Origin: a virus
IMG/VR virus record: IMGVR_UViG_3300045988_115635
Span: 1-64,000 of that record
Reading direction: 5' to 3' (one strand)
DNA: 64,000 bases
Below the pieces are notes generated by a model. It did no database searches, was not told the DNA's origin, and worked only from the letters and a program-made list of their open reading frames with translations. Both the position numbers and the translations under genes were made by a program. Shown here one piece after another: positions 4,530-47,413 of the stretch (positions within the stretch are counted from its first letter, which is position 1; each line of letters begins with the position of its first letter).

Positions 4530-4805
4530 TTTGAAGAATTTGATATTGACAGCGGGAGTGTTTCTCCTGGAACTTGGCTTACGATTGATGCACCAACAAA
4601 AGAAGGGTATATAGCAATATCAGCAACCTTTGTTGGAACAATAACAAGTGGAGGTTGGCAATGGATAATCAATAATCCGATATGTTTTCCTGAGTCTAAA
4701 TTAGCAAAAATACGTGTTGTAAACAATAACAATGCAAATGCTGCAATACTAGGTAAAATAATTGTCACGTATCTAAAATCTAAGCTTAACAATGATTCTC
4801 AATAA
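4515..4805 (+). other. silent C-terminal cassette b (96 codons, begins HSI)
   Basis: HSIYQFEEFDIDSG...ISATFVGTITSGGWQWIINNP...NNNNANAAILGKII..; stop TAA 4803-4805; homologous to cassette c. Confidence 0.65.
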
Positions 4806-4850
4806 AATAATTGAAAAACGAACAAATGTTCGAACTCAATAAAATAATTG
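4799..4850. promoter_or_regulatory. LexA/Cheo-box-like dyad CGAACAAATGTTCG (~4819-4832) flanked by CTCAATAAAATAATTGA palindromic arms
   Basis: exact match to the Firmicutes SOS-box pattern CGAAC-N4-GTTCG; one of six related copies in the window. Confidence 0.55.
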
Positions 4851-4862
4851 AGCAAAAAAAAT

Positions 4863-4884
4863 AACCCCCTCAATTGAGGGGGTT
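4863..4884. terminator. bidirectional rho-independent terminator downstream of the endolysin
   Basis: AACCCCCTC-aatt-GAGGGGGTT hairpin with an A-run before and a T-run after. Confidence 0.75.
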
Positions 4885-4890
4885 TTAATT

Positions 4891-6109
4891 TTAATAACGC
4901 AATACCTGACCAGGATAGATTGTGTAAGGTGAAGAAATACCATTCTTAGAAGCAATGGTTTTCCAATTTACGCCTAATTTCTGACCAATCTCTGACAAAG
5001 TATCACCTGATTTAACCGTATAAGTATGGTTAGAAGCAGATGAGCCAGAAGAACCAGGAATGGTGAGACGTTGACCAGGATAAATCAAGTTTACGTTAGT
5101 AATGCCGTTAGCAGATGCAATAGCATTTACAGTAGTACCGTAAGAAGATGCAATTCCTGATAAAGTATCGCCAGACTTTACGGTATACATTACGCCAGAA
5201 GAACCGCCGCCATTTACAATCTTCATAACCTCATCGTAGCGTGAACCTAATACGGTCTTACGCAAATTGCCATTACCGTAAACACCTTCCCAGGTTTCAT
5301 CAGCTAGGGTAGAAGCAGAAGAATTAGAAATATGGTTAATCATTTCTTGTACTTCATCGTAGCGTGAACCTAAAGCCTGCTTACGTGCATCACCATTACC
5401 ATAGTCACCTTGCATTACCTTAGCAACAAGGTCAATAGTACGACCTTCTGGGTCAGAGCCTGTTTCTGGGGTAGAAGGTGTAGGAACAGTAGCATTACCA
5501 GACGGGTCTGCATACTTCATCCATGCTTCAGCGTCCATGTAAGCCTTGTTAAGGTCAAGGTTTCCGCCGTAGCCATTCAATCTACCAGCAGATGAATACT
5601 GACGGATAGCACAGCTATAAGCACCTTCATTCCACGGAGTATCCTGATAGCCAGTAGTATTGTTATTTGCATACTGTGCAACCCATGTACCAGCATTTAA
5701 GCCTGATGCAGTGTCCCAGGGAAATACTGACTTAGAAGAATAAATCAAAGGCGTTACGTTTGTTCTATCCTTTACTCTCTGACAGAATTGGCGCAAATAC
5801 TCAACGTTGCCCCATGCACTGTTTTGACCAGATTCCCAGTCAGCACACAAAATACCTTTACCAATCCAATTGAGAATTGAATCTACAAAATGATCAGCTT
5901 CTGCTGTAGCATTGCCGCCAGAAATGTAATGATAAACGCCAAAAAGCTTACCAGCACTAATACACTGTTCTACCTGACGAACACAGTCGGGTGAAACATA
6001 TGATGTACCCTGGGTAGCCTTGCAGATTACAAAATCTGATGGAACTACAGCTAGGTTGATGCCATTTTGCCAATTTGAAACATCAATACCGTTCATTGCC
6101 ATAATTCGT
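4891..6109 (-). CDS. endolysin: GH25 muramidase + 2 CW_7-like repeats + 2 LysM domains
   Basis: start [12 protein letters not shown] with AAAGGAG RBS (the track ORF extends to 6135); GH25 N-terminus (GIDVSNWQ...[16 protein letters not shown]...GVYHY); repeats [21 protein letters not shown] and [21 protein letters not shown] (CW_7-like); two [15 protein letters not shown] LysM motifs. Confidence 0.9.
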
Positions 6110-6151
6110 TTTCTCCTTTCTTTGCAAAGAAACATACTTCAATTTTAAAAG

Positions 6152-6168
6152 TAGTTTTCTATATCGCA
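6152..6168 (+). repeat. shufflon site Se (core 6157-6164)
   Basis: TAG TTTTCTATATCGCAA immediately beyond the endolysin start region. Confidence 0.7.
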
Positions 6169-6478
6169 ATATGAATTAGAAGATTGTTCTAGTTTGGTAA
6201 CTGCAAAAGATAATTTCAGCGTTGTAGAAGCTAGAGTATTAAAGCTTGGTAACTTAAAAATGCTTTATATTTATGTTTCTTGTTCTAGCTTGCTAAGCAG
6301 TGGTACTAATATCAATGCGTTTAGCGTTTCTGGGGAACTTATTCCAAAACAGAAAATACCAATAAGTTCTGACACCGTAACTGGTTATATAGGTACAAAT
6401 GGTAATTCATGGATGACACTTCAGGTAGCAAGATCATCTAGTCAAAACATAGGTTGTTGTACATGTTTTTACATTTAG
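6155..6478 (+). other. silent C-terminal cassette e (107 codons, begins FSI)
   Basis: TTT TCT ATA TCG CAA... open to TAG 6476-6478, which abuts site Sd; the track ORF 6194-6478 (TTG start) is the same frame. Confidence 0.65.
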
Positions 6479-6492
6479 TTTTCTATATCCCA
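6476..6492 (+). repeat. shufflon site Sd (core 6481-6488)
   Basis: TAG TTTTCTATATCCCAC. Confidence 0.7.
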
Positions 6493-6826
6493 CTACTCAA
6501 CAACCGAAACACCAACGGGCAAAACCTGGATTGATGGCAAGCCGATCTACTGTAAAGTGATCAAGTTCGGCGCGATGACAGGCAACAATCGGTATACCAT
6601 AGCGCATGGTATTTCTTACGACACTATAGTGTCCTTTAGTGCTATTGCCCGCAACTCCACTAATAGTTACTTACCTCTTGCGCGTGTTGGATACAATGGC
6701 GACAATCAGATAGATGCGTCCTTAAACGGTTATGCGTATATCACTCCTGATAATGCAATCATCATTGGAGGCTCGCAGACCAACTACACAGGCGCTACCG
6801 TAATTATTGAGTACACCAAGGCTTAA
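6479..6826 (+). other. silent C-terminal cassette d (115 codons, begins FSI)
   Basis: FSISHYSTTETPTGKTWIDGKPIYCKVIKFGAMTGNN...IIEYTKA*; the track ORF 6557-6826 is its GTG-started tail; ends convergently on the stop of the 152-aa gene. Confidence 0.65.
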
Positions 6827-7281
6827 CTAAGTTTATACCCGATAACTTTAGTGATACCGAGTTTGTCCTGTTTTCGTCTTTCCATAGTGCCGTTGTTCGT
6901 AAAACCAAGTTCACCAACAGCATGGTCAGTGTTTAACGTGCATTGCGTTCCTGATATATTCATACCTTTATAAGCGAACCATAAGTAACCATAAGAAGTT
7001 GACGATGTTGCATTGATTCCGATGGTTTTCCCATTCGGATCAGCAATCCTTTGGGAACCACATATGCCATCATCGTGCTTCCAAAAGAACTCTAAGTAGT
7101 CGTAATTCGCCGCAGAATCGGAGAGCGTAATTGCGTCCTTGGTGCCTTGCTCGCTTTCAAAAAGAGTTTGGGATATAGAATCCCAGTTAGCTTCTAAAGT
7201 CGATAATCGCTGGTCAATCGCGTCTCCATCAATAATTAACTGTGTGTCACCGCTCGTATTTTTGCCATATACTTTACCCAT
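6823..7281 (-). CDS. expressed shufflon gene: 33-aa constant N-terminus + DSIS crossover + 115-aa variable C-terminal domain; putative receptor-binding/tail-fibre tip protein
   Basis: the only properly initiated gene in the region (AAAGGAG-8nt-ATG); codons 34-37 GAT TCT ATA TCC are the inverted copy of the site; N-terminus (IDQRLSTLEANW) predicted helical. Confidence 0.7.
   Translation of the reverse strand: MGKVYGKNTSGDTQLIIDGDAIDQRLSTLEANWDSISQTLFESEQGTKDAITLSDSAANYDYLEFFWKHDDGICGSQRIADPNGKTIGINATSSTSYGYLWFAYKGMNISGTQCTLNTDHAVGELGFTNNGTMERRKQDKLGITKVIGYKLS
7170..7184 (-). repeat. shufflon site S0, the only minus-orientation copy (core rc of 7174-7181), inside the 152-aa gene
   Basis: minus strand reads GGGATTCTATATCCC. 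Confidence 0.7.
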
Positions 7282-7314
7282 ATTTTTAACTCCTTTTAGA
7301 GGTGCTTTTAAAAA

Positions 7315-7343
7315 ATTATAGTAGATAGTTTTCTATATATCAA
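7315..7343 (-). promoter_or_regulatory. sigma-A-like promoter of the 152-aa gene: TTGATA-17-TATAAT, with the -35 overlapping site Sf
   Basis: -10 TATAAT = rc 7315-7320; -35 TTGATA = rc 7338-7343; 17-nt spacer. Confidence 0.5.
7326..7342 (+). repeat. shufflon site Sf (core 7331-7338)
   Basis: TAG TTTTCTATATATCAA immediately upstream of the 152-aa gene promoter. Confidence 0.7.
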
Positions 7344-7595
7344 AGTAAAACATATTCTAAAAGTTTGACAATTGGAGCTGGTGCAACAGGAGACTTTTCA
7401 GCAACTCTTGATACACCTGGTGGATATATGCCTGTAGGGGTTACAGCAATAACAACTGGGCAAGTAAAATGGACACTCGTTCAGTTCGAAATCAATGTTG
7501 AAAATAACTACCTAGTTGCTTCAATTCATAGTGTTGACACTTCTAGCAGAACATCAACTGTTGCTATGTCAGTAGCGTTTATAAAGGTGAGTTAG
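7329..7595 (+). other. silent C-terminal cassette f (88 codons, begins FSI)
   Basis: FSIYQSKTYSKSLTIGAGATGDF...AFIKVS*; the track ORF 7365-7595 (TTG) is the same frame; TAG 7593-7595 abuts site Sc. Confidence 0.65.
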
Positions 7596-7609
7596 CATTC
7601 TATAGGCTT
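7593..7609 (+). repeat. shufflon site Sc (core TTCTATAG 7598-7605, one mismatch)
   Basis: TAG CATTCTATAGGC. Confidence 0.6.
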
Positions 7610-7892
7610 TTATTTTGGTGTTCAAAGCGTAGATACTGGCAACATAGATTCAAACGTAAGTTCTTGGCAAACAATTCCCTATGTAGAGGGATATTTACCT
7701 GTTAGTGTTTGCTTTGTTGGATATTACACAAATGGTTCAAGATGGATTGTAAGTAACCCTATGGAAATAACCGATAATGAAAGTCACATAACGTTAGTAA
7801 GAATGTTTAATAACAATGATACGGTTTCTGCTGCTAAAGGTGATTTAGAGATTATATATATAAAAAGATCGTTGTTTGAAAACCTTAGCTAG
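7596..7892 (+). other. silent C-terminal cassette c (98 codons, begins HSI)
   Basis: HSIGFYFGVQSVDTGN...VCFVGYYTNGSRWIVSNP...NNNDTVSAAKGDLEIIYIKRSLFENLS*; homologous to cassette b; not in the ORF track because it has no start. Confidence 0.65.
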
Positions 7893-9918: not shown

Positions 9919-9994
9919 TCTAAAAAAATGGTGCGCCTGGTAGGATTCGAACCTACAACCTTCAGATTAGAAGTCTGCTTCTCTTTCCGTTGAG
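9919..9994 (-). tRNA. tRNA-Arg (anticodon UCU), CCA encoded
   Basis: rc = GCGCCTG-TA-TCTC-AACGGAAA-GAGA-A-GCAGA-CTTCTAA-TCTGA-AGGTT-GTAGG-TTCGAAT-CCTAC-CAGGCGC-A-CCA; 7-bp acceptor stem, GTTCGAAT T-loop, anticodon loop CUUCUAA. Confidence 0.85.
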
Positions 9995-10398
9995 ATACAG
10001 GCGCAAATAATGTAAAGCTTTAACCCTTAACCTTGTCTTTACTGACAGACACCCAATATTGTCTACTAGTCCGTCTTCCCTCGCCCGTTCGCTGGTACTT
10101 TATGCTGTATTTTCCCTGCAAACACTAAGCCCGTGCTCTGTGGTTAACAGCCTATCACGCTGCTCCACGCACGTACTCTTTGCTTTAACAGCAATCAGCA
10201 AAGAGGTGATTAAAGACCCTCCTAACTTTTTGAGCCTATAGAGACAAAGAAAGTAGGAGGGCGAGTTTATACCTTGCGTCCTCCTACTAACGATTAGGAG
10301 GGTTTTTGAACCCAAAAACAATATACGAATTGTAAAACAATTTGTCAATTAAAAATTGAGAAAATGTGATAATCTTTACTTACCAAATAGGAGGAATC

Positions 10399-14988: not shown

Positions 14989-15326
14989 TAGTTAGCAGTC
15001 CAAATCAGATAATCATTCTCAACAGAGATTTCAAATGATTTAATTCCATACTCTTTGGCTACAGCGTGCTCAATCCTACAACCCCGCGCTTTGTACCAGT
15101 CAGTATCAAATACCGCGATGTCAGCTTCTGCAATCTTAATAATAGATTCGCCCAAGCAGTAGATACTTTTGTTCTTAGTTTCAAGTGATTCAAAATCAGA
15201 AACGTAAGTATCAATGATTTCAGCATCAGGGAATTTAGCAAGAATGATATTAGTAATACGTTCAGTGTTTTGTTTGATTTCTTCTGGCGTTTTGCCATTC
15301 ATCATCTGAGAAATAAAAGCCTTCAC
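14988..15326 (-). CDS. hypothetical protein (112 aa), possibly nucleoside 2-deoxyribosyltransferase-like (DUF4406-type)
   Basis: AEADIAVFDTDWYKARGCRIEHAVAKEYGI resembles that fold; weak. Confidence 0.35.
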   Translation of the reverse strand: MKAFISQMMNGKTPEEIKQNTERITNIILAKFPDAEIIDTYVSDFESLETKNKSIYCLGESIIKIAEADIAVFDTDWYKARGCRIEHAVAKEYGIKSFEISVENDYLIWTAN

Positions 15327-15817
15327 TATTTTACCCCCGTAGAACCGTAGCCGTTTTCTCCACGTTCGCTATCGGATAGTTCATCTACCTCATGAAAATT
15401 AGGCGTAACATATTCCATAAATACAATTTGAGCGATTCTGTCCCCAACCTCATAAGTAAACGGCTCTGTGCCAAAGTTTCCTAATACAACCCAAATTTTA
15501 CCGCGATAATTAGCGTCAATAGTGCCTGTAAGCACAAAAATACCTTTCTTAGAAGCTAAGCCGCTCCTAGACTGAATATGACCGTACAGATGACTTGGTA
15601 TCTCCATAGCTATACCAGTTGGGATCATCTTAAATTCACCTGGTAAAATTTCACCTTGTTCAGATGCTTTAAGATCAGAACCAGCATCATAAAAATGCTT
15701 TCGTTCTGGTAAAGAACCATTTTCATATGTTTTTACACGAATATTGGCTTTAATGACGTTTTTTATTTCGCTAGTTTTCATTATCAAATCTTTTAATTCG
15801 ATAGTTTTCATTATCAA
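15326..15817 (-). CDS. dut: dUTP diphosphatase (trimeric dUTPase)
   Basis: motifs YDAGSDL, IQSRSGLA, GTIDANYRGKIWVVL, GDRIAQIVF; the start region carries an 18-bp tandem duplication that gives two candidate ATGs. Confidence 0.9.
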   Translation of the reverse strand: MIMKTIELKDLIMKTSEIKNVIKANIRVKTYENGSLPERKHFYDAGSDLKASEQGEILPGEFKMIPTGIAMEIPSHLYGHIQSRSGLASKKGIFVLTGTIDANYRGKIWVVLGNFGTEPFTYEVGDRIAQIVFMEYVTPNFHEVDELSDSERGENGYGSTGVK

Positions 15818-16103
15818 ATCCTTCGTATACTTCTATTGGAGCAACAACAGTTTCAATTTCACCATCTACAATCTTAACATTGCAGTTAGGACAAGCTAAA
15901 TTTAATTCGTTAAAACTGTGCGCTATGTCTAGCTGCTCAACAATTTCAGGCGGTAATTCCTCACGACAGTACCCACAAAGCCATATAGCGTATTCGTCTA
16001 AATAGCCATCATTTTGCACTGCTCCAACGACAAAGACAGGCGTTGCTTTAATCATTTTACCCCTTCTTTCTAAAATCTCGATTATTTTATTGAGATAGAA
16101 CAA
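15771..16103 (-). CDS. zinc-ribbon protein (true start probably MIKATPVF, ~95 aa)
   Basis: CGYC...CPNC; overlaps the dUTPase start by ~47 nt. Confidence 0.5.
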   Translation of the reverse strand: MFYLNKIIEILERRGKMIKATPVFVVGAVQNDGYLDEYAIWLCGYCREELPPEIVEQLDIAHSFNELNLACPNCNVKIVDGEIETVVAPIEVYEGFDNENYRIKRFDNEN

Positions 16104-16135
16104 ATGTTCTAGTTCAATTATTTTATTGAGGTTTA
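16085..16135. promoter_or_regulatory. Cheo-box-like dyad AGAACAAATGTTCT (~16098-16109) with TTATTGAG arms
   Basis: same composite motif as 4819, 25145, 26534, 37805 and 47349. Confidence 0.5.
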
Positions 16136-16140
16136 TTCTA

Positions 16141-16503
16141 CTAAGAATTTAAAAGTTCTTTTGCAGCTTCTTCTTGCGCTTCTTTAATAAGGTTTCGCTT
16201 AATAGAACGCTTAACAATTTTATCAGCAGCAATCTCTAAAATCTCGTCAAGGTGATCATCGAAGAATTTAGATATTTCGTCACTGACGAACTTTTTCATA
16301 TCTACAACCTCAACATCTTCATAAAAGGGATACCCGTAAATATCGTTTTGATTGTTCTTGGGTACTTTTTCGATCTTATGAGGAAAAGCTTTCAAGGCTT
16401 TTTCTACAAGTATGTTTTTAACTTCTTCTTTAGCTTGCTTTTCAATATATTCCTCAATCATCTTTTCAGAAAATGGTACGTTTATTGTAATTGGTACATT
16501 CAT
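16141..16503 (-). CDS. hypothetical protein (120 aa)
   Basis: ORF. Confidence 0.5.
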   Translation of the reverse strand: MNVPITINVPFSEKMIEEYIEKQAKEEVKNILVEKALKAFPHKIEKVPKNNQNDIYGYPFYEDVEVVDMKKFVSDEISKFFDDHLDEILEIAADKIVKRSIKRNLIKEAQEEAAKELLNS

Positions 16504-16506
16504 TGT

Positions 16507-16962
16507 TTAATCCTTATCAAAAACACCATATTTGTCGTTTATCACAATATCTCCTGTACAGTTTGTCGCAATTGTGTCTGGTCTATCAAGATTACCTGTA
16601 CAGTTATTTGCGGTTGTATCTTGTTCGACAAAGTTGTGAGCATAAATGCTGTATGAAAGTTGAAAGTCGTTATTTGCCATTGCAAAAACTTCTTGTAAAC
16701 AGTTAGCCATGCCATTAATGCCGTACATAACAGTATTTTCTAAGATTTCATCACCTGCATTTGGAGACTTGTCTTTACGCTTTCTCATTTTAGATTCGTA
16801 CTTTTGAAGCTTAAGAATAAGTTGTTCATACGCTTCACCAATTTCTAAAGCAAGCACAATAGCTTTCTGTTCTTCTTTAGAAAAGGTAGTAGAGTTGCCT
16901 AAGAACCTCTTAATAGAACGACCAATAACATTTTCTTCTTGGTTAGTTTCTTTATTTTTCAT
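16507..16962 (-). CDS. hypothetical protein (151 aa)
   Basis: ORF. Confidence 0.5.
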   Translation of the reverse strand: MKNKETNQEENVIGRSIKRFLGNSTTFSKEEQKAIVLALEIGEAYEQLILKLQKYESKMRKRKDKSPNAGDEILENTVMYGINGMANCLQEVFAMANNDFQLSYSIYAHNFVEQDTTANNCTGNLDRPDTIATNCTGDIVINDKYGVFDKD

Positions 16963-17245
16963 CGCATTTAACCTCGTCTAGTTTTCCTGATAAATACATT
17001 TGCATAGCAGCCATAGCTATTCTTGAAACATGAAAATACCAATCATCAAAATCTCTTTTACCCCCTTTTTCGACACCTTTCATTTGAGTTAGCATTTCAC
17101 GCAAAGCATCAAGATCATCTTTCATGCTTTCTTTGCAAGATTCTGTAAATTTCCAATCATTACTAAATTGGAACATTTGAAAAGTAGTAGCACTAGAATC
17201 TAGTGCTACTTGCGCCTTATTCATACTTTTCTCCTTTAGCATCAA
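16952..17245 (-). CDS. hypothetical protein (97 aa)
   Basis: ORF. Confidence 0.5.
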   Translation of the reverse strand: MMLKEKSMNKAQVALDSSATTFQMFQFSNDWKFTESCKESMKDDLDALREMLTQMKGVEKGGKRDFDDWYFHVSRIAMAAMQMYLSGKLDEVKCDEK

Positions 17246-17478
17246 TAATTGTTGGTTTTTTCGGAATAAGCATTAATCACTTTTTCAAGAACAAGTTCAG
17301 TCTCATCACCTTTGGAGTAATAAACCCTCACAAGCGTTTTCTTTTCATTCCTAATAGGGATAAGCGACACACGAACACTATCAGCTTCATACATACGCTT
17401 AATGACTTCACTCAACGTAAAGATTTCAGTATAATCATCAATGATTGCGCGTTCTGCTGCATTCTTGGGTTCTAACAT
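17242..17478 (-). CDS. hypothetical protein (78 aa)
   Basis: ORF. Confidence 0.5.
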   Translation of the reverse strand: MLEPKNAAERAIIDDYTEIFTLSEVIKRMYEADSVRVSLIPIRNEKKTLVRVYYSKGDETELVLEKVINAYSEKTNNY

Positions 17479-17486
17479 CGTTCCTC

Positions 17487-17750
17487 CTAAAATTGATACA
17501 CCAAAAAAGGTTCATCGTTTTCGTTAAAGCTGTAAACACAGAAACAGCCAGTGTATATGTCAAACTCGCAAGCACAGCCATTTTCAAGACCGAACAAATC
17601 TTCAAAGGTATATTGAATAATTTGATACTGCTTATAAAAGGCGTTCCAAACATACTCTGGGCAATCCTGGGGCAATGCTTTCCAGGAACGGTATGAATCT
17701 TCAAACTTTTTAAGAACCATACGCTCGGTTTCATTCTTTGCTCTAATCAT
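17487..17750 (-). CDS. hypothetical protein (87 aa)
   Basis: ORF. Confidence 0.5.
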   Translation of the reverse strand: MIRAKNETERMVLKKFEDSYRSWKALPQDCPEYVWNAFYKQYQIIQYTFEDLFGLENGCACEFDIYTGCFCVYSFNENDEPFLVYQF

Positions 17751-17759
17751 GGTTAACTC

Positions 17760-18068
17760 CTAAATGCTCGTCTCTTTTAAAAGATTGTTCTTAAAGAAGT
17801 TGTTTTTGTAAGCCAACCAATTAGGAATAGAAACCTCTACCCAGTTGCTTACGCCTGATTTGATTTCTTCTTCACTGAACAAACGGTTCTCGTCATAGTA
17901 GGGTTCAAGTTCGGTAATAGTCGTTTGAGACTTTGGCAACCAAACAACGCCATACTCTTTGTTAGAGTAGGAGTAATCATGCGAAACCGAATACTTAACA
18001 CCAAAGGCTTTTTCAGTTTCAATAAAATCATCTTTGAGAGCGTAGAAGCTAAAATCTGAACGCTTCAT
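17760..18068 (-). CDS. hypothetical protein (102 aa)
   Basis: AAAGGAGG RBS + ATG (MKRSDFSF); the track extension to 18107 translates the promoter/RBS region. Confidence 0.55.
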   Translation of the reverse strand: MKRSDFSFYALKDDFIETEKAFGVKYSVSHDYSYSNKEYGVVWLPKSQTTITELEPYYDENRLFSEEEIKSGVSNWVEVSIPNWLAYKNNFFKNNLLKETSI

Positions 18069-18089
18069 GATATTTCCTCCTTTAAGTTG

Positions 18090-18172
18090 GTAAAACCATT
18101 GTAGCATAATTTTCTTAATTTTTGTTTTACATTATGAAAATATAAAAAATAGAGGTAGTTTTACTACCTCTA
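18090..18172 (-). promoter_or_regulatory. terminator hairpin (18143-18172) followed by the conserved promoter element (..ATGTAAAACAAAAATTAAGAAAATTATGCTACAAT)
   Basis: AGAGGTAGT-ttt-ACTACCTCT hairpin + T-run on the minus strand, then the conserved element with -10 TACAAT. Confidence 0.5.
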
Positions 18173-18910
18173 CTCATTGTCGAATCTTTCTTCAAGGTCG
18201 AATACCGTTTTGCCGTCCCTTCTAAAGGGAATATCTATTCGACTTTGTAACCCTTTTAACCTTTCCCAGTAAAAGGGGAGATATTTTCTGATAGCTCGCA
18301 ACTCTTTCAGGTTTTTGTTTCTACAACACCAACAAGAAGCACGATCTAAAACATCATATAAATCAATGCCGTTTTCATTCCAATCAAACCCATGTTCACG
18401 ACAATACTGTAAACAATCTTTTTCAGTCATGCCCCATTCAATCAAGGGATAAATCTTATTAGGTTTGATTCTATGTTGTTCGTCTGCTGCAATACCTACA
18501 TACTCCACATACTCGCCCAGGCTCTTTTGATATTTGTCTATAGCCTGGTTTTTGATGGTAGTCATCCATCTGGTATTAGCACCGCACCAATCATAGCCAT
18601 ACTTACATGTACCGTCTCTTTTATTGACTGGTTTAGCAAACATTAACATTAGAAAAGATTCTTTAGGTTCAAGTCTTACTAGTTCGGCTCCGTATTCTTT
18701 AATAATCGGTTCAGCTTTATCAACATTTCTTTTTACTGATTCAAAATTCATGCCCTCATCAAAGTTAACAACCTTAGTAAGAGGTTTGTTTTCTTCAATG
18801 AGTTTCAATACCATTGCCAAGCTATCCTTACCGCCTGACAGACTTGCAATAAATTCCATAGCACCATGTGCAAAACCTTTGCAACATGGATACCTTAATT
18901 GGCTTCCCAT
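18170..18910 (-). CDS. PAPS-reductase-family (PP-loop ATP pyrophosphatase) protein
   Basis: SLSGGKDS PP-loop motif near the N-terminus; C-terminal Cys cluster CWCC; true start may be the internal MEFIASL. Confidence 0.65.
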   Translation of the reverse strand: MGSQLRYPCCKGFAHGAMEFIASLSGGKDSLAMVLKLIEENKPLTKVVNFDEGMNFESVKRNVDKAEPIIKEYGAELVRLEPKESFLMLMFAKPVNKRDGTCKYGYDWCGANTRWMTTIKNQAIDKYQKSLGEYVEYVGIAADEQHRIKPNKIYPLIEWGMTEKDCLQYCREHGFDWNENGIDLYDVLDRASCWCCRNKNLKELRAIRKYLPFYWERLKGLQSRIDIPFRRDGKTVFDLEERFDNE

Positions 18911-19272
18911 GCCAGCGTAGAATCTACGCCAACGCTACTAGATAAGGTTTACAGTGAGTTAGCCACCCATCACACCGACCACAGTTTACTGTGGTTTCGC
19001 TACGTCCTTTCTTCTTTGCAAACTACAAAATAAAAAATGTTTATAACTATCACCCCTTACCCTCAATAATCTCATCACAAGTATCTAAGAGTTTTTCATA
19101 CCCCAGGAATTCAATAAGTTCTTTTAAACACTTGGGACAGAGCCTACCGTGAATATGAAAACATGCTTATACCCTATGTAAATAACGTTATATTTCGATT
19201 CAGGTTCGTACTCTGAATTTCCGCTATCAACTTCAAACAAATTATTACATCTGCTACATGTATATGTTTCGA

Positions 19273-19725
19273 TCATAACCTTTTCCCTAGCTTAGGTGCT
19301 GATACTTCATACCCCAAAGCGTTAGCTAATTTGTTCATTTCTAAGAAGCTAAGGTTTTTAGACTTTAGAATTACTTGAAGTTCTTCAAGTGAGATATTTA
19401 ACCTATCAGCATATTCTTTTAATGTCATACCTTCATCGTCAACAAGAAACAGTATTTGCTCTATAAAGTTTTGGGTAATTTCTTCTGCAATTTCTTTCGC
19501 AAGTTCATCAGCGTTTTGTTCTTTTGTATCAATATCAAAGGCATGTAACAAGTCTACCTTCTTAATGTCATAACAGCCATTGAAAGACACATTTAAGAAC
19601 TTCTTTATTGCAACAGCATAAGAGTGGTTCATTACAGCATAAACGGGGCGTTCACGGAAAAAGATTGCTTGTCCATCTACTGTTTTCGAACCCTCAACAA
19701 TCACGTAAACAAAAGATTCTTTCAT
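19273..19725 (-). CDS. HTH (XRE-like) DNA-binding protein
   Basis: C-terminal MTLKEYADRLNISLEELQVILKSKNLSFLEMNKLANALG. Confidence 0.55.
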   Translation of the reverse strand: MKESFVYVIVEGSKTVDGQAIFFRERPVYAVMNHSYAVAIKKFLNVSFNGCYDIKKVDLLHAFDIDTKEQNADELAKEIAEEITQNFIEQILFLVDDEGMTLKEYADRLNISLEELQVILKSKNLSFLEMNKLANALGYEVSAPKLGKRL

Positions 19726-19734
19726 GTTCGTTCC

Positions 19735-19971
19735 TTACCAAAAATCAATACCCTCATACTGATCAGCAATCATTCGTTTAACCTCTCCTGGTCCTCCAAT
19801 AGCACTGATTTCACTCCACGTAAGATCAAACGACCTTACAACTTTTTCCTCAATGTCTACAGCCCAGCCATCATCAATAACATCATACATTTCTCTGATT
19901 TCATAATGATTGACGTGTTTTAATCCATCGACTTTTACTGTGCAAATGGTCCTTAGATATTGCAATTCCAT
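19735..19971 (-). CDS. hypothetical protein (78 aa)
   Basis: ORF. Confidence 0.5.
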   Translation of the reverse strand: MELQYLRTICTVKVDGLKHVNHYEIREMYDVIDDGWAVDIEEKVVRSFDLTWSEISAIGGPGEVKRMIADQYEGIDFW

Positions 19972-19973
19972 TG

Positions 19974-20171
19974 TTATTTCTCCTTGGTAGACGTGATTAA
20001 ATAATCTTCTTTAAATTTATCAATCCATTTCCTTACTTCTTCAGTAGGAGAATTTTGCAACTTATAAATGTAGATATCAAAAGTCTTAGTATTGATGTAC
20101 AGAATAATGTCTGGTACATCGTCTGAAAGAACAATCTTATAAGACGGGTTTTCAATATCGCTTTCGTTCAT
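19974..20171 (-). CDS. hypothetical protein (65 aa)
   Basis: ORF. Confidence 0.5.
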   Translation of the reverse strand: MNESDIENPSYKIVLSDDVPDIILYINTKTFDIYIYKLQNSPTEEVRKWIDKFKEDYLITSTKEK

Positions 20172-20193
20172 TGTTCCACCTCATGTTTATAAG

Positions 20194-20406
20194 TTATTCG
20201 TTCTTGCAACCGCAATAAGGGCAACAAGAAAGATGATCTTCAAGTGTATGAAACTCTTTTCCGCAACCAGAACAGGTGAACTCATTAGCACCTCGTGCAA
20301 TGTAAGGAAAGTTCTTTTTAATGTATTCAAGGTCCTTACATCTGAAAAAGAATGGTTCATCAATAACAAGGTTCTTTTTATTAAATAATTTATTGAACAA
20401 TTTCAT
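20194..20406 (-). CDS. Cys4 zinc-ribbon mini-protein (70 aa)
   Basis: CSGCGKEF...CCPYCGC. Confidence 0.5.
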   Translation of the reverse strand: MKLFNKLFNKKNLVIDEPFFFRCKDLEYIKKNFPYIARGANEFTCSGCGKEFHTLEDHLSCCPYCGCKNE

Positions 20407-20416
20407 CGCTAACCCC

Positions 20417-21353: not shown

Positions 21354-21373
21354 TTTCTAGCGTCCCTTCTTTT

Positions 21374-21832: not shown

Positions 21833-21888
21833 TGCAATGGGTAGGATTAAATAATTATTTTAATTATTTTCTTACAGTTTTATTCAGA

Positions 21889-22385: not shown

Positions 22386-22496
22386 TGTTGTTCCTTTTAT
22401 ATAAGAATACTTGTATAGCGAGTTTTAGCTTAAAGGGTAGAGCAGCAAGCCTATTTTTAAGACTAGGCTTACACCCTATGAATTCTTCTAAAGGAA

Positions 22497-25077: not shown

Positions 25078-25124
25078 TGTTTTTACCTCCTTTAGAACCT
25101 CAATTATCTATTGAGGATTTTTTC

Positions 25125-25160
25125 TCAATAAATTTATTGAGATAGAACAACTGTTCGTGT
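25125..25160. promoter_or_regulatory. palindrome CTCAATAAATTTATTGAG + Cheo-box-like AGAACAACTGTTCG (25145-25156)
   Basis: perfect 18-bp palindrome abutting the GAAC-N4-GTTC dyad. Confidence 0.5.
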
Positions 25161-25234
25161 TTGAGTTGGTTTTTTCTTACACAACTATACTAAGTTATAG
25201 GGGGTAAAATGTAAAGTAAGAATTAAGATAATTA

Positions 25235-26447: not shown

Positions 26448-26600
26448 GATATTCCTCCTTTAAGTTGGTATAAGTCAGTATATCACCTTTATCTTACTTT
26501 TTGTTTTACATTCTCAATTATTTTATTGAACTAGAACAAATGTTCGTTCTCAATTAATTTATTGAGAATTTTGTTCTTAATACTTTTATTGAGGTTTATT
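26448..26600 (-). promoter_or_regulatory. conserved promoter element (GAGAATGTAAAACAAAAAGTAAG..TGATATACT) plus upstream Cheo-box-like AGAACAAATGTTCG (26534-26545) and TTATTGAG repeats
   Basis: same architecture as the 47281-47380 region. Confidence 0.5.
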
Positions 26601-26625
26601 TCAATATGTTTTATTGAGATAAAGC

Positions 26626-26671
26626 AAAAAAAAATACCCTGGTAAGGAAACGAACCAAAACTTACCAGGGT
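26626..26671 (-). terminator. rho-independent terminator (minus strand)
   Basis: ACCCTGGTAAG...CTTACCAGGGT 11-bp stem, U-run on the minus strand. Confidence 0.75.
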
Positions 26672-30695: not shown

Positions 30696-30770
30696 GAATA
30701 TGCTCCTTCTAGTCTTGTTTTAATAATATCATCTGTTAATAAATATGTAAAACAAAACTAAAAACAATGA

Positions 30771-37780: not shown

Positions 37781-37860
37781 AATCTCAATTAATTTATTGA
37801 GATAGAACATTTGTTCGTTTTTATAAAAAGATAGGGTAAGCACCCGTGAAGGTGCTTACC
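37781..37860 (-). promoter_or_regulatory. terminator hairpin (GGTAAGCACC..GGTGCTTACC) + Cheo-box-like AGAACATTTGTTCG (37805-37816) + CTCAATTAATTTATTGAG palindrome, directly upstream of dnaE
   Basis: terminator followed by the operator-like composite motif. Confidence 0.5.
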
Positions 37861-37862: not shown

Positions 37863-39074
37863 TTAATCAAAAGGGATGTCGTTGTCATACACTCCACTCT
37901 GTACGTCCTGCCAAGGAATTGTATAAGGTGCTTGTGATGGAGTTGGTACGGCTGTAGGAATCTGCTGTACTTGCTGTACTGGCTGCGTAGGAACATCTTG
38001 AACAGGAGCAGCCTGAACGGGTTGAGCAGCAATAGTTTGAGCAGGTTGAGCCACTACTTGTGTAACTGGCTGTGCTACCTGCGTAACAGGTTGAGCAGGA
38101 ATGCCTTGCATAGGAACAGGCTGCTGTACTGGCTGTGCCTGCTGTACTGGCTGAACAGGTTGAGCAGCCTGCTGCAAAGCCTGCGTAGCACTCGCTACCG
38201 TTGCGTTAGGCTTATAACCTACATTTTCATTTGCATAACCCTCTACTTGAATACCGCAAGAATTATATGCCTGGGGTGTACCCATACTTGCCACTAAATC
38301 AGCAAGGGTTCTGGTCATATATGGCTTATAAGGCGTGTTATCGGTTTCGCCTGTCTGAAAATTCAAACGATTAAAACGATAGGTGCGTTCATCAATGCGC
38401 TGAATTTCCCAGTCATAGTAAGTAATGGAATCAAAATAAGTTGGGTCCTGGTCGTTGAGGATAGACCAGAAGTTACCATAAGCCTGGTTAACCATTACAA
38501 CCTCTGGGATCATTTCACCATCTTTTTCAATCATCTTGTCTTTGATTGATTTTACCTGCTTATCAGGGATACCCATGCTATTTACAGTAGTTTCATATTC
38601 AGCTTCACGAACAACAGCATAACCATACAAACGGGGTGAAGGATTATTCTTAGCCATGTACTTACGCCCGTTGTATTCTTTTTCAACTTCTTGCTCACAA
38701 AGAGGGCAAGAATAAGGCTGCTGATTCTCTGGGTCGTTCAAACACCATACAGAACGATTAGCACCCTTTACAAAGTGAAAATCACCGCCAGCAGTTCCTT
38801 CTTTTACGTCTACAATATCAGCGTCAGAAAAAGGCTTGCCACATACAGGGCAAACAATAGGCTTACCCTCTGCTATACCTTTATCCCATTCCATCTTTGG
38901 AATTTCGATATTGCAATTACAGCCTACTGATGCGTGATTTACTACTACACAATCAACCATTGGAGTTAAGAAGCGCAAAATTGCACTTTCTCCCTTTTTC
39001 AGACTAAACCAACCAAAACCACCATTGCCTTTGGTGTTCTGTTCCTTAGACAAACGCGCTGCAACATTCAACAT
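37863..39074 (-). CDS. ssDNA-binding-like protein with zinc ribbon, Q/P/V-rich low-complexity linker and C-terminal DIPF tail
   Basis: CPVCGK..CPLCEQE zinc ribbon; QPVQPVQQAQPVQQPV... repeats; terminal YDNDIPFD resembles the SSB C-terminal DDDIPF motif. Confidence 0.45.
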   Translation of the reverse strand: MLNVAARLSKEQNTKGNGGFGWFSLKKGESAILRFLTPMVDCVVVNHASVGCNCNIEIPKMEWDKGIAEGKPIVCPVCGKPFSDADIVDVKEGTAGGDFHFVKGANRSVWCLNDPENQQPYSCPLCEQEVEKEYNGRKYMAKNNPSPRLYGYAVVREAEYETTVNSMGIPDKQVKSIKDKMIEKDGEMIPEVVMVNQAYGNFWSILNDQDPTYFDSITYYDWEIQRIDERTYRFNRLNFQTGETDNTPYKPYMTRTLADLVASMGTPQAYNSCGIQVEGYANENVGYKPNATVASATQALQQAAQPVQPVQQAQPVQQPVPMQGIPAQPVTQVAQPVTQVVAQPAQTIAAQPVQAAPVQDVPTQPVQQVQQIPTAVPTPSQAPYTIPWQDVQSGVYDNDIPFD

Positions 39075-39760: not shown

Positions 39761-39892
39761 TTTCCTTTTCTGATACTTTCAAATTTTTGGTTTTTACTGC
39801 ATTAAACTTTTTGAATGCCATTGTGTTACCTCCTTTAAAACAATAGTACCACTTTTCAAACAATAATTAAGAAAATAATTAAGAAAATAATT

Positions 39893-42897: not shown

Positions 42898-43250
42898 ATA
42901 TCTTGGTCCACCTCTTTAGTATTAGATTCAGCCAAAGCAGAATCGGTTAACCACCTGAATTTTTTAGAAAATAATTCTTTGCCAATAGGCTTGTTTTTAA
43001 ACCTGCCACCCCATTCACCATAGATGTAAGAAACAATCTTAATAGCATCATCTTTGCCGTAGTCTCTTACAAAGCATTCAACACTGCGCATTGCAGGCGC
43101 GGTAAACATGCTTTTCTGATTCATGGGATCGATACTAAAAAGAGACATATAACAATTCCTAAAATTGTCATACACCTCTTTAATATCAGGGTTATTTTCG
43201 TAAATGTTATGTGCCGTCCCTGGTATATTTTTTAAGTCCATAGTTATCAC
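42888..43250 (-). CDS. hypothetical protein (120 aa)
   Basis: ORF. Confidence 0.5.
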   Translation of the reverse strand: MITMDLKNIPGTAHNIYENNPDIKEVYDNFRNCYMSLFSIDPMNQKSMFTAPAMRSVECFVRDYGKDDAIKIVSYIYGEWGGRFKNKPIGKELFSKKFRWLTDSALAESNTKEVDQDIWL

Positions 43251-43704
43251 AGATTCCGTTTATTACTCTAGCTGCTTCTATAGGGTCATTTATAGGTAAG
43301 ACAGCTTCAATGTTTTTATTCTCAATATCTTCACCATCAAGGCTAAAGACTATATTAAAGCTATATCGACTTAATATAGTCTCAATTTCGGTTTCGAGAA
43401 TCTTTTTCAATGATTCATCTTGAACCTCGTCAATAAATTCAATTGGTAAATCCCTTGACACAATCAACTTTAAGGGTTGGTACATTTGCGCCATTCCTTT
43501 TACTGATTCGTTGGTAAGCATTAAATCAAATAAAAGTTGATTGATAGAGAGATTCAAAAGTTCGTCATTACCAAACTCAAAGTTTGGCATGCGTCTAAAT
43601 ATCTCAAAGGAGGTATGGTGATAATCTATGCAATTACTAAGCACCTTTGAAAACTTTCGTTTTTCTGCAAGGCTACCACCATATAGACCAATGTTTAATA
43701 TCAT
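43207..43704 (-). CDS. hypothetical protein (165 aa)
   Basis: ORF. Confidence 0.5.
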   Translation of the reverse strand: MILNIGLYGGSLAEKRKFSKVLSNCIDYHHTSFEIFRRMPNFEFGNDELLNLSINQLLFDLMLTNESVKGMAQMYQPLKLIVSRDLPIEFIDEVQDESLKKILETEIETILSRYSFNIVFSLDGEDIENKNIEAVLPINDPIEAARVINGICDNYGLKKYTRDGT

Positions 43705-44509: not shown

Positions 44510-45035
44510 TCTTAGTCATTTTGCGCAAAACAAGCTTATAGCTTGCAGGCTTTACTGTCATAACATCTTCCGAACAAACAAGGTCGGTAGGAACAAGGTC
44601 ATTAAGACCAACAATAGCCTTTTCGATCTTAGATTCATCAATGATGCGAGGTACAGGGTTTACCTTAGTAACACTCTTGAATGCTTCCCAAGCTTTACCC
44701 TTTTTGTCATTAATATCTTCGCCGTAGTAAGCGTACAAAGCGTTTAACAGATTATCTTCTGTAATTTCGCGCTGTTCACCACGTGCTACTTCACGCTGAA
44801 TTTTCTGCTGGTTATCAAAACCATAGATCGAAGCAGTAGTTTCGCCCGTTTCGTCAATGAGTGAGTTAATAGTAGATTTAATAGCAGAAAGATTCTTGTC
44901 AATTTCTTTCTTTTGCTTGTTAAGATCATCGTAAAGACGAACCAAAGCTTCAGCGCGTTCTGGTTTGTAAAGGTCCTCTTTTGAATAGTCCTTTACTGCT
45001 AAGATTTGTTCAGAAACCTTTTGAATGTCAGCCAT
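44451..45035 (-). CDS. hypothetical protein (194 aa)
   Basis: ORF. Confidence 0.5.
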   Translation of the reverse strand: MADIQKVSEQILAVKDYSKEDLYKPERAEALVRLYDDLNKQKKEIDKNLSAIKSTINSLIDETGETTASIYGFDNQQKIQREVARGEQREITEDNLLNALYAYYGEDINDKKGKAWEAFKSVTKVNPVPRIIDESKIEKAIVGLNDLVPTDLVCSEDVMTVKPASYKLVLRKMTKNEEGRYANRELNSFEPMGD

Positions 45036-45136
45036 TGTAAGCCACCTTTCATCTCCTTGCTTTTGATAATTTAATGATAGCTTAGTGCGCTAAAAGTGTA
45101 AAGAAATAATTGAGATAATTATTTAAATAATTTTAT

Positions 45137-45499
45137 CTACTGAATTACCTTCCAACTTTCGCCCATGTCGGTTGATTTGTTAATAAATGTATCAGAAGGA
45201 AAATTTGCTACCGCAAAATCGACTAATTTGTTTACCTCTGCTTCATTGTCTCCAAAGAACTCAAAGCCAATAGCAGGTAATTTGTCGGTTTCTTTCATAA
45301 GTTCTAGTAGCTGCAAACCGTTGTAGTTTCCACCGTTAGGGGTAATAGCGAACCAGCCTACTTTATCGGCTAACTCTATAATCTTGGGGTCCTGTGTCCA
45401 ACTGTAATTTGTTCGCATTCCTTTGTTAGTTGGTGCAAGCCATACATTTACCCTAGCAGCTACAATTTTCATGATATTTTTCTCCCCATTAAAAGCCAA
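45137..45499 (-). CDS. hypothetical protein (120 aa)
   Basis: ORF. Confidence 0.5.
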   Translation of the reverse strand: MAFNGEKNIMKIVAARVNVWLAPTNKGMRTNYSWTQDPKIIELADKVGWFAITPNGGNYNGLQLLELMKETDKLPAIGFEFFGDNEAEVNKLVDFAVANFPSDTFINKSTDMGESWKVIQ

Positions 45500-47267
45500 G
45501 TATGTAATCTATATTCTTCATTGTATCGTTTTCACCTGCGATCTCATACTCACCAATTCCCATATCTTGCGCTAAGGCTCGTCTACCTGCCATAGTATCT
45601 TCAATGCGTTCTTCTATCGTTTCTCGCGTAACAAAACGATAAATTGTTACGTGATTATGCTGTGAACTAATACGATGGATACGGTCTGATCTTTGGTTGT
45701 ATGCAGAATAGGTCGAAGGGGTATCATAATGAATCAAGTACCTACCTTCTGGTAAGTCTATTCCTTCTTTTCCTGCGTCACTCATTAAGATTAAGTTGTA
45801 ATTTTTATCATGCCTAAAAGCATCACCGATAACTTTTCTTTCTTTTGCACTTTGCTCACCTGTATATAGCAGTGGTTTATATTGCTTTAGATGATTAGCT
45901 AGGGGAATTAAGCAGTTATTAGTGTGTTGAGCAAAGATAATAAGCTTTTCACCTCCACCGATTATCTGGTCCACTAATTCTTCTGCTTTTTGCAATTTTT
46001 CACTATTCTTACTATCTACTAAATCTTTAGCGTATTTTTGAACAATTTGGTGTATATGTTCTAGCTGATCTTTATAAAAGAATATACCGCCGTTATACTG
46101 CCAAATGTCATCGTTGAGTAAAACCTCTGGCATTCGACAGATACGCTCTAACATAAGCATAAATAGCGTTCGCTGCTTAGTATCTGTTTTCTGCTCACGG
46201 TCAAAAGCGCTTACTTCTTTGCCGTAATTTTCTATTTCGTTGTATAGCTTTCGCTCTATTGGTGATAAGTCTAACTCAATAACAATTTCCTGCTTTTCAG
46301 GAAACTCTTTAGCGATTTCAGGGTTTGTTTTCTCGGCAATAAAGGTTTTACCCGCGCTCATTAAGCCCATAATGTCTAAATTTTGAAAACCAAGATAACG
46401 ATTGAACATATCTTTTTCGCCATCGTTATAGGTAAATAGATGTTCAAAATCTTTAACTCTACCGTAAATATCAGGCTCTATAATTCGCCATTCATTATAA
46501 AAATCTTCAGGACCACGTTCTAACGGGGTAGCAGTTAAACCTATCTTGTATTTAACGTCTAGCTTTTTATTAAACTCAATAAATTTCTTATGGCGTGAAC
46601 TTTTCCTATTTTTAAGTCGCTGAACTTCATCGTAAACGATACAAAGCTTTTTACCTTCTAACGCCTTTATGATGTAATGCCAATCTTTAGTGTTTGCTCG
46701 GTCGTAGTTAATAACCCAAATATCACTAGTATCTGTTTGATACCATGCCTGGCGTTTAGATAATGGCTTGTTTCTATCTACTGTTCCTGCTGTTAGCTTT
46801 GTAGCAGTTTCTAACCATGAAACCCACTGCTCAATCAAAGGAGCAGGGCAAAAAACTAAGACTTTATTTATATTTCCTCTATCAAATTCACGGGTGAAAA
46901 ATACTGTGCCTAAACACGTTTTACCAGTGCCACATGAACAAATAAACATGGCGTTATTTTTGCCATCTAAAGCATGTAAACCACGTTTTTGAAAAGCTTT
47001 TAAATCAAAAGGTAAAGTAAGAGATTCGCTCTCAATATTCGATTCGTTTCTTACTTTTTGGAATAACTTTGCAGCATCTTCAGTAAACCCAACGTTTGAT
47101 ACTTTAGACAATCCTTCACAAAGTTCTGTGATGCGATCTGAATTCTTTAGAACGTTGGTTCTACTTACTATAGATGCGTCTTTAAAAGGCTCTAGTACAG
47201 ATTGATCCTCTGCAATTACTTCAAATTGATCTTCGAAATAAGGTGATAGTGCGATGGTAGTATTCAT
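45489..47267 (-). CDS. SNF2-family helicase/ATPase
   Basis: motif I CSCGTGKT, motif II DEVQRL, helicase C-terminal domain. Confidence 0.8.
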   Translation of the reverse strand: MNTTIALSPYFEDQFEVIAEDQSVLEPFKDASIVSRTNVLKNSDRITELCEGLSKVSNVGFTEDAAKLFQKVRNESNIESESLTLPFDLKAFQKRGLHALDGKNNAMFICSCGTGKTCLGTVFFTREFDRGNINKVLVFCPAPLIEQWVSWLETATKLTAGTVDRNKPLSKRQAWYQTDTSDIWVINYDRANTKDWHYIIKALEGKKLCIVYDEVQRLKNRKSSRHKKFIEFNKKLDVKYKIGLTATPLERGPEDFYNEWRIIEPDIYGRVKDFEHLFTYNDGEKDMFNRYLGFQNLDIMGLMSAGKTFIAEKTNPEIAKEFPEKQEIVIELDLSPIERKLYNEIENYGKEVSAFDREQKTDTKQRTLFMLMLERICRMPEVLLNDDIWQYNGGIFFYKDQLEHIHQIVQKYAKDLVDSKNSEKLQKAEELVDQIIGGGEKLIIFAQHTNNCLIPLANHLKQYKPLLYTGEQSAKERKVIGDAFRHDKNYNLILMSDAGKEGIDLPEGRYLIHYDTPSTYSAYNQRSDRIHRISSQHNHVTIYRFVTRETIEERIEDTMAGRRALAQDMGIGEYEIAGENDTMKNIDYILGF

Positions 47268-47280
47268 ATTTTCTCCTTGC

Positions 47281-47413
47281 TCTGAAACACACTATACCAC
47301 CTTTTAGCTTCATTTTTGTTTTACATTCTCAATAAATTTATTGAGATAGAACAAATGTACGTGTTCAATTATTTTATTGACAAAAAAAAGGAGGTATTCA
47401 TAACGAATACCCC
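47281..47413 (-). promoter_or_regulatory. terminator (47382-47413) + Cheo-box-like AGAACAAATGTACG (47349-47360) with CTCAATAAATTTATTGAG palindrome + conserved promoter element (..AATGTAAAACAAAAATGAAG..TGGTATAGT)
   Basis: boundary between the structural and replication blocks. Confidence 0.5.

Follow-up and report, generated by a model that had tools for sequence, protein, structure and literature searches.

The 64,000-nt stretch of viral DNA analysed here (positions 1 to 64,000 of the IMG/VR record IMGVR_UViG_3300045988_115635, hereafter the window) carries six near-identical composite elements, designated S1 to S6. In each of them a GAAC-N4-GTTC dyad of the type recognised by LexA in Gram-positive bacteria (the Cheo box, hereafter B) adjoins an 18-bp palindrome (hereafter P). 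According to our analysis, P is the signature regulatory palindrome of the whole lineage of myophages resembling Eggerthella phage LE2-3 and is older than B, which is restricted to a low-GC sublineage among the phages compared. We read P as the likely operator of a lineage-specific phage factor and B as a LexA-type operator added beside it, which host LexA would co-occupy so that the cassette responds to DNA damage; to this reading, drawn from the sequence, we assign a probability of about 0.45.

Six composite elements with a fixed geometry

The dyad GAACANNTGTTC (core GAACAnnTGTTC) is found exactly at 4820, 16098, 25145, 26534 and 37805, where 0.07 occurrences are expected and none of 100 shuffled sequences reaches five, and the sixth copy at 47349, GAACAAATGTAC, departs from it by one mismatch, so that the six near-identical composites reported in a preliminary description of this DNA are borne out. 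The enrichment is about 70-fold, and all six sites hold GAAC-N4-GTTC with A6 and T9; the dyads thus match the LexA consensus of Gram-positive bacteria, and S1 matches the extended Cheo form CGAACRNRYGTTCG over the full 14-mer. This first site (4819-4832, CGAACAAATGTTCG) is, as had been claimed, an exact CGAAC-RNRY-GTTCG, the SOS box of Bacillus type. A scan of the window with the 14-mer CGAACANNTGTTCG and up to two mismatches returned 8 matches against 1.7 expected, and the two beyond the six are both coding and at chance level. With the 18-mer CTCAATAAATTTATTGAG and up to three mismatches, 11 matches were found against 0.09 expected, 10 of them inside the six clusters.

Each B adjoins a copy of P, which in the window has the form CTCAAT-W6-ATTGAG. 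Read along transcription, the cassette consists of an optional P, 3 nt, B, 3 nt ("tat"), and P; the downstream P is present at all six sites and the upstream P at four. The spacing between B and P is 3 bp (4 bp once), and the centres of adjoining B and P lie 18 bp apart. The CTCAAT...ATTGAG sequences had been taken for flanking arms of the LexA box; they are instead a separate, lineage-wide palindrome, present without the GAAC dyad in high-GC relatives.

Past about position 4,800 the genes of the window are essentially all encoded by the minus strand, and the B sites are located in the 5' regulatory regions of the SNF2-helicase-primase, dnaE-recA and small-gene operons. The proposed location at operon boundaries does not apply to S2, which lies inside an operon. 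The intrinsic terminators said to precede the sites are found just upstream of S1, S4, S5 and S6, whereas S2 has none. The cassette is followed by a ribosome-binding site (RBS) and start codon at S2 (16055), S3 (25077) and S5 (dnaE, 37767), and by the conserved TGTAAAACAAAAA...TGnTATAnT extended -10 promoter at S4 and at S6, which serves the SNF2 operon. At S2, which strain L105 shares, P is followed after 21 nt by the RBS GGGG and the ATG, which lead into a dUTPase gene. At S3, B lies about 25 nt downstream of a sigma-70-type early promoter, and the gene that follows encodes an acidic, Cys-rich protein of 79 amino acids (aa). The S5 operon comprises dnaE, then recA, an exonuclease gene and RecU, and no sigma-70-type promoter is predicted at S5. 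B at S6 reads GTACATTTGTTC on the coding strand, with its one mismatch.

S1 is oriented along the plus strand, as judged by its asymmetric P centres (AAAATA) and its junctions, and is thus opposite to the other five sites. Without a gene start 3' of it, S1 is located between the 3' ends of plus-strand tail-fibre cassette open reading frames (ORFs) and a bidirectional terminator (4865-4882) that also closes the endolysin gene. The preliminary description placed one site inside the shufflon region and raised the possibility that it gates the switching locus. Neither idea is retained: S1 adjoins the invertible tail-fibre region, and it is reversed, at the 3' end of the cassette ORFs, directly before the terminator and about 1 kb from the recombinase gene.

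Palindrome P across the LE2-3-like lineage

The window represents 64,000 nt of a phage genome of about 110 kb, leaving about 45 kb outside it, and its GC content is 38%. Relatives were recovered from the protein database and from Logan/ENA contigs; a DnaE search of IMG/VR gave no close relatives, and composite-motif searches of IMG/VR gave 0 matches. The nearest described relative is LE2-3 (112 kb, 63% GC), whose DnaE is 67% and whose 1,290-aa tail protein is 70% identical to those of the window, with the same gene order in the replication module. Two contigs, L009 (39% GC) and L011 (52% GC), encode DnaE proteins 75% and 64% identical to that of the window, and further LE2-3-like contigs were recovered from metagenomes and IMG/VR. 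The lineage formed by these phages and the window thus spans 38% to 63% GC although their DnaE proteins are 64-75% identical to that of the window, an unusually large compositional shift which implies hosts that differ widely in GC. Many metagenome samples contain near-identical genomes of 105-112 kb; the cohort-style names of their records (e.g., ZELL14-1) suggest a human-gut origin.

The general form of P is (C)TC(A/G)AT-W6-AT(T/C)GA(G), and its core TC(G/A)AT-N6-AT(C/T)GA is found in the window, L009, L011, LE2-3 and the recovered LE2-3-like contigs. As DNA it is written TCGATWWWWTAATCGA, with the forms TCGATTATTTAATCGA in LE2-3 and CTCAATAAATTTATTGAG in the window. LE2-3 contains 16 copies as (T/C)CGAT-W6-ATCGA with at most one mismatch, which is an AT-rich motif in a 63%-GC genome, and five P sites (seven strand matches) fall in a single 50-kb segment of it against 0.00 expected. 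L011 contains 4 copies in 23 kb, L009 9 in 22 kb and the window 13, and many are present in the IMG/VR relatives; relatives whose DnaE is 45-50% identical yielded none.

Three settings of P are seen in the high-GC phages. The palindrome either provides or overlaps the -10 element of the primase promoter TTTACT-17-TAAAAT (LE2-3 97650, L011 6938), or occupies about +2 to +17 behind -10 elements of the TGTGATAGTCT type (LE2-3 109207 and 30752, L011 18360), or follows a GC hairpin 14-27 nt before a Shine-Dalgarno (SD) sequence. P also stands alone 5' of dnaE, at the place equivalent to S5, in LE2-3, L011 and two other relatives (L004 and L006); in L011 this single copy lies between a terminator hairpin and the dnaE RBS, which is the place of S5 in the window. 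The arms of P are uniform within each genome: they pair as G:C in LE2-3 and L011, the window and L009 have A:T pairs, S2 holding the single A/C hybrid, and in the CCGAT variants the pairing of the arms is broken. This uniformity, together with the pairing-breaking variants, points to a sequence-specific factor acting in trans and co-evolving with its site, and not to selection for an RNA stem. P has the distribution expected of a dispersed operator, with numerous intergenic 5' copies in each genome and conservation among related phages. A literature search found no published match to its sequence. NrdR, ArgR, Fnr/Crp-type and dif/Xer sites are unlikely identities of P in view of half-site sequence and spacing.

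Copies of P also occur within genes. Three copies, 36 and 24 bp apart, lie inside a DnaJ-domain gene of L009 (8464-8540), in frame as LNKIIE repeats, and in LE2-3 copies inside ORFs are read as DKIIE at 24336, 51182 and 79192; in the AAAATA variant only one reading frame is open.

Dyad B in the low-GC sublineage

In the window, in L009 and in a further contig, L010, every B adjoins a P at 3 bp, and neither a free-standing B above chance nor a P outside the composites was found in the window and ten additional strains. The high-GC relatives show no enrichment of GAAC-N4-GTTC, and LE2-3 has no such dyad beside a P. The S3 ortholog was identified in L009 at 18150-18300, where a TCTTAAT...TTTACA promoter, B, P, an RBS and a gene for an acidic, Cys-rich small protein (40% identical) follow one another; there the arms of B are kept and its centre is changed from AGTT to ATAT. 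S4 is orthologous in L009 as well, where the contig ends within the copy. For S5 and S6 there are no counterparts in L009, which indicates that the cassette has spread.

In a set of 11 strains, S4 carries 1 to 4 P units and S3 carries 1 or 2, depending on the strain. When the B-P cores of these strains were compared, none of 56 arm positions was variable, against 6 of 34 positions in centres and linkers (Fisher p=0.002). The half-sites are thus under selective constraint while the centres vary.

Promoter elements around the cassettes

An early-promoter architecture, TCTTAAT(T)-N-TTTAC(A/T)-17-TAnnnT, is kept across the lineage from 38% to 63% GC (Table 1). A second promoter class, TGTAAAA(C/G)AAAA...AAG...TGnTA(T/C)A(A/C/G)T, is present in four copies on the minus strand (47311-47325, 26497-26510, 18131 and 13987), two of which stand directly 3' of a composite and two without one; the opposite strand at 13969 and 18113 reads as an TCTTAATT...TTTACA element. 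The possibility that the composite itself is a plain sigma-70 promoter was rejected, as its hexamer fits are poor and predictions occur at chance frequency.

Table 1. Components of the six composite sites (window coordinates) and occurrences of the early-promoter architecture
Feature	Genome	Position	Strand	Components
S1 composite	Window	4798..4852	+	P 4798-4815; B 4819-4832 (CGAACAAATGTTCG); P 4835-4852
S2 composite	Window	16077..16130	-	P 16113-16130; B 16098-16109; P 16077-16094 (hybrid CTCAAT...ATCGAG)
S3	Window	25098..25215	-	Promoter TTTACA-17-TAGTAT (25215-25187) with upstream TCTTAAT; B 25145-25156; P 25124-25141; second P 25098-25116
S4	Window	26477..26670	-	Terminator 26637-26670 and T-run; P 26549-26566; B 26534-26545; P 26513-26530
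S4 degenerate P units	Window	26600-26618, 26576-26593	-	
S4 promoter	Window		-	TGTAAAACAAAAA 26497-26510; extended -10 TGATATACT 26477-26485; ATG 26447
S5	Window	37784..37860	-	Terminator 37835-37860; B 37805-37816; P 37784-37801; RBS GAGG; ATG 37767 of dnaE
S6	Window	47291..47415	-	Terminator 47389-47415; P 47364-47381; B 47349-47360; P 47328-47345
S6 promoter	Window		-	TGTAAAACAAAAA 47311-47325; extended -10 TGGTATAGT 47291-47299; ATG 47267 of SNF2 helicase operon
Early-promoter architecture	Window	25187-25240, 39850-39892, 45060-45136, 30700-30770		
Early-promoter architecture	LE2-3	97600-97665, 109160-109210		
Early-promoter architecture	L011	6890-6940		
Early-promoter architecture	L009	18150-18215		

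Candidate binders and host

Domain scans with Pfam, PHROGs and NCBIfam listed no LexA-like domain and yielded only weak helix-turn-helix (HTH) matches. Among the matches listed for the 75 window ORFs scanned with Pfam, none is to LexA_DNA_bind or S24, so that a phage-encoded copy of LexA is not evident. The product of 25751-26188, a gene in second place in the S4 operon, where the operator array is largest, has weak Pfam matches to HTH families (HTH_17, 0.011; HTH_36, 0.012) and an isoelectric point (pI) of 9.2, and we read it as two tandem NUMOD-like repeats. A second candidate, 19273-19725, matches HTH_3 at 9e-4. The lineage-conserved small proteins gave no DNA-binding match with Pfam or NCBIfam, and the candidates for a P repressor (30396-30695, 43207-43704 and 45137-45499) were picked by phyletic pattern only. 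The acidic, Cys-rich protein encoded 3' of S3 was rejected as a binder of B on account of its charge (pI 4.4).

The host is Gram-positive. A host search with the endolysin against phage records returned a mixture of Actinobacteria and Firmicutes, and the best hits in a scan of GTDB genomes were to Clostridia at 43-46% identity.

A proposed LexA-type operator beside a probable phage operator

In the mechanism that we propose, P would be bound by a dimeric, lineage-specific and probably phage-encoded regulator, as its position, symmetry and co-evolution suggest, and this regulator would shut down or time transcription units of the early and middle classes. A LexA-type operator may have been joined to P at a distance of 3 bp in the low-GC sublineage, with later copying to six regulatory regions, where host LexA could sit shoulder to shoulder with the P-binding factor. 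Cleavage or displacement of LexA would end their joint repression of the early, accessory, nucleotide-metabolism and replication/recombination operons. The enrichment, fixed geometry and phylogenetic distribution of the motifs, the orthology of S3 and S4 and the constraint on half-sites are matters of observation; what binds either motif, and in which direction regulation works, we infer. Since B has by its sequence the makings of a high-affinity Gram-positive LexA operator, host LexA is the most economical candidate for its binder. The GAACN4GTTC consensus is documented for B. subtilis and clostridia (PMC4234289). In favour of host LexA we also count the genes 3' of the cassettes, which have replication, recombination and nucleotide-metabolism functions. 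The LexA consensus of Actinobacteria is the same dyad as that of Firmicutes, down to A6 and T9. A precedent for LexA acting with phage factors at phage promoters, likewise counted in its favour, is given by the control of the promoters of the tectivirus GIL01 by LexA, gp7 and gp6 (PMC4551915, PMC6182141).

Several observations weigh against this proposal. The negative result for LexA covers the matches listed for window ORFs, with about 45 kb of the genome lying outside the window, and the evidence on the host is divided, endolysin homologues 60-69% identical being found both in prophage contexts of 65-67% GC and on one contig of 27.5% GC. No lysogeny module was found in the window as judged by an integrase, a CI-like repressor or partition genes, the only tyrosine recombinase being a small Xer-like enzyme beside the invertible tail-fibre cassettes; the phage looks virulent, and having its essential replication genes repressed by LexA while cells are unstressed would come at a cost to it. 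LexA of the actinobacterial host of LE2-3 should recognise the same dyad, yet LE2-3 is without boxes. Furthermore, B is always accompanied by P at a rigid spacing, which a dedicated phage partner or a single multi-domain complex fits equally well, and weak HTH candidates specific to the low-GC clade exist in 25751-26188 and 19273-19725. The placement of the cassette is also heterogeneous: with respect to the promoter it lies at +25 to +57 at S3 (at about +25 after a strong promoter, as in the L009 ortholog) and at about -44 to -97 at S4 and S6, upstream of the extended -10 promoter; S2 and S5 have no recognisable promoter, and S1 has no target gene.

A more elaborate version of the proposal, which we hold to be unlikely, would have LexA recruited as a co-repressor, with a LexA/phage-factor complex on the SNF2-DnaB-primase, DnaE-RecA and early operons maintaining a dormant or carrier state that DNA damage releases, that is, an SOS-gated switch placed atop an ancestral virulent circuit.

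Alternatively, B may be the operator of a phage-encoded regulator that is specific to the low-GC clade and works with the P factor, the likeness of B to an SOS box being coincidence or mimicry. The unfailing coupling of B to P at 3 bp, the clade's own small basic or HTH-like proteins named above, the virulent-type gene content and the lack of boxes in LE2-3 all speak for such a binder. We nevertheless consider it somewhat doubtful, since a chance match to 10/10 bases of the LexA dyad at the right spacing has a prior of ~1e-4 by our rough estimate, since no LexA-like winged HTH is among the matches listed for window ORFs, and since a Gram-positive LexA, given its established specificity, would bind such a site anyway. 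The heterogeneous placement of the cassettes would in turn be explained if each were a self-contained, phage-specific promoter of the middle class, P being the core element read by a phage-modified RNA polymerase, transcription starting just 3' of P and B serving as a repressor site at about -26. P does often stand directly after a terminator hairpin, 14-27 nt before an SD sequence and with no other promoter (dnaE in the window, LE2-3 and L011; LE2-3 13430), and its asymmetric AAAATA centres, which contain TAAAAT, are on the coding strand in LE2-3 in six cases against none. However, at the orthologous dnaE site AAAATA is exchanged for TATTTA or TAAATA centres, which offer no TAnnnT -10 element, conservation extends to both arms as in the site of a dimer, S1 would fire directly into a terminator, and no phage sigma factor or RNA polymerase was detected among the matches listed for window ORFs, all of which makes such a promoter distinctly unlikely in our view.

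Position just 5' of SD sequences and a bias in orientation would suit palindromes that act as RNA, as 5'-untranslated-region hairpins serving as translational operators, stabilisers or processing sites, with the GAAC dyad as another small hairpin. The predicted folds are more stable than those of shuffled sequences (z -1.7 to -5.3), and the SD is sequestered in an extended stem at LE2-3 109207. We give this only a slim chance, however: the stems measure 5-6 bp (4 bp for B) and are AU-rich in this phage, each genome keeps one arm sequence and not a mix of compensated pairs, CCGAT...ATCGA and the S2 hybrid persist despite their broken pairing, and no Rfam family is matched. In addition, P overlaps the -10 element or the transcription start at several promoters, so that it would not be fully transcribed there. 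As to the cassette being a repeated terminator/promoter scaffold or a selfish mobile repeat without a specific binder, its copies are near-identical, the number of P units varies by strain, positions differ between the window and L009, and S1 is without an obvious target gene; but constrained half-sites with drifting centres, the retention of the motif through the GC shift from 63% to 38%, and a strictly intergenic placement with consistent orientation at 5/6 sites leave this explanation scarcely credible.

To our knowledge, nothing is known of gene regulation in LE2-3-like phages of gut Gram-positive anaerobes. The analysis provides for them a lineage-wide operator motif whose half-site has moved from TCGAT to TCAAT as GC moved from 63% to 38%, and which can serve to fish out the protein that binds P. 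It would also describe a regulatory layering in which an operator of host SOS type was joined to a phage operator at fixed geometry and spread to six operons. If the proposed LexA control holds, DNA-damaging drugs would alter the replication of an abundant gut phage.

Other features of the window and its relatives

An apparent tail-fibre switching region takes in 2989-3857 (+), 3900-4790 and 6136-7884, where a small tyrosine recombinase of Xer type is encoded along with short cassette ORFs of mixed orientation, one of them with Gp53-like_C. The 13-mer GATATAGAA(A/T)(A/G)CT, repeated at 4252, 4524, 6165, 6489 and 7338, is likely the crossover site. It is a better candidate for the recombination site of the tail-fibre invertase than B, which was rejected in this role, its 2-bp centre being too short for the core of a tyrosine-recombinase site. 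In an unrelated 65%-GC prophage, a similar small recombinase lies beside a tail gene that is inverted between two samples (L019 and L020). A long collagen-like tail-fibre gene with Gly-X-Y repeats starts at 2865 and runs off the start of the window (1-2865, minus strand); it contains large, near-identical internal repeats, e.g., about 1500-1830 and 1830-2160.

The accessory small-gene region 3' of S3 (15235-25000) is highly mosaic in comparison with the strains L102-L111, which are otherwise 97-100% identical, and differing sets of Lar-like, Dam, WDGH and zinc-ribbon genes are found between strains. One ORF within 6823-20740 matches the anti-Thoeris protein Tad8 (6e-26), and a tRNA-Arg(TCT) gene is located at 9929-10004 (minus strand). 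The gene at 37863-39074 (minus strand), 5' of S5 and dnaE, encodes a protein of 403 aa with a CxxC zinc motif, a Q/P-rich linker and the C-terminal sequence ...DNDIPFD, and its product is likely the phage single-stranded DNA-binding protein (gp32-like). One contig carrying the phage measures 226,264 bp, about twice the genome, and may be an assembly concatemer or contain the phage within other DNA.

Relation to described systems

In its proposed action the cassette resembles the promoters of GIL01, with LexA and a phage factor, and the dispersed operator regulons of SPBRE/MrpR and the stoperators. It belongs to none of these families, as neither a LexA homologue nor a temperate module was detected in the window and P is a dyad without sequence relation to their elements. 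The SPBRE of phage SPbeta is an element of about 15 bp, found in some 10 intergenic promoter regions, that is the site of the master repressor MrpR (PMC10516654). It resembles P as one short element repeated in the intergenic regions of a large phage; however, SPbeta is temperate, the binder is a dead tyrosine recombinase, the element is not paired with an SOS box, and its sequence bears no similarity to P. The stoperators of Cluster A mycobacteriophages (PMC9283540, PMC6550527) are, as here, many dispersed short operators in short intergenic gaps, oriented with transcription and co-evolving with their repressor, but they are asymmetric 13-14-mers bound by the monomeric immunity repressor of temperate phages, whereas P is a dyad. 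With the chromosomal Cheo/SOS boxes of B. subtilis (DinR/LexA) and of the C. difficile regulon (PMC4234289) the cassettes share the dyad GAAC-N4-GTTC and SOS-like downstream genes (recA, dnaE, resolvase, exonuclease). Chromosomal boxes stand alone and usually overlap the -35 or -10 element, whereas the box is embedded here in a phage palindrome array at a variable distance from the promoter.

GIL01 offers a parallel in that LexA boxes (dinBoxes) lie in the promoters for replication and late genes, with an adjacent second, phage-specified palindrome, both of which can be occupied at once, and in that the trigger is SOS. It is, however, a 15-kb temperate linear plasmid-prophage with three promoters, whose partner gp7 binds LexA and not DNA and whose gp6 is a truncated LexA homologue. 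The phage described here has a genome of about 110 kb, looks virulent, and carries six cassettes with a fixed 3 bp between box and palindrome; no LexA homologue of the gp6 kind is among the matches listed for the 75 ORFs, and a gp7-like protein is not recognisable by sequence. LexA-gated control is also known from the phages CTXphi and 186. If LexA binds the cassettes, a large phage that encodes its own replisome would join GIL01 and other small temperate phages under LexA-gated control.

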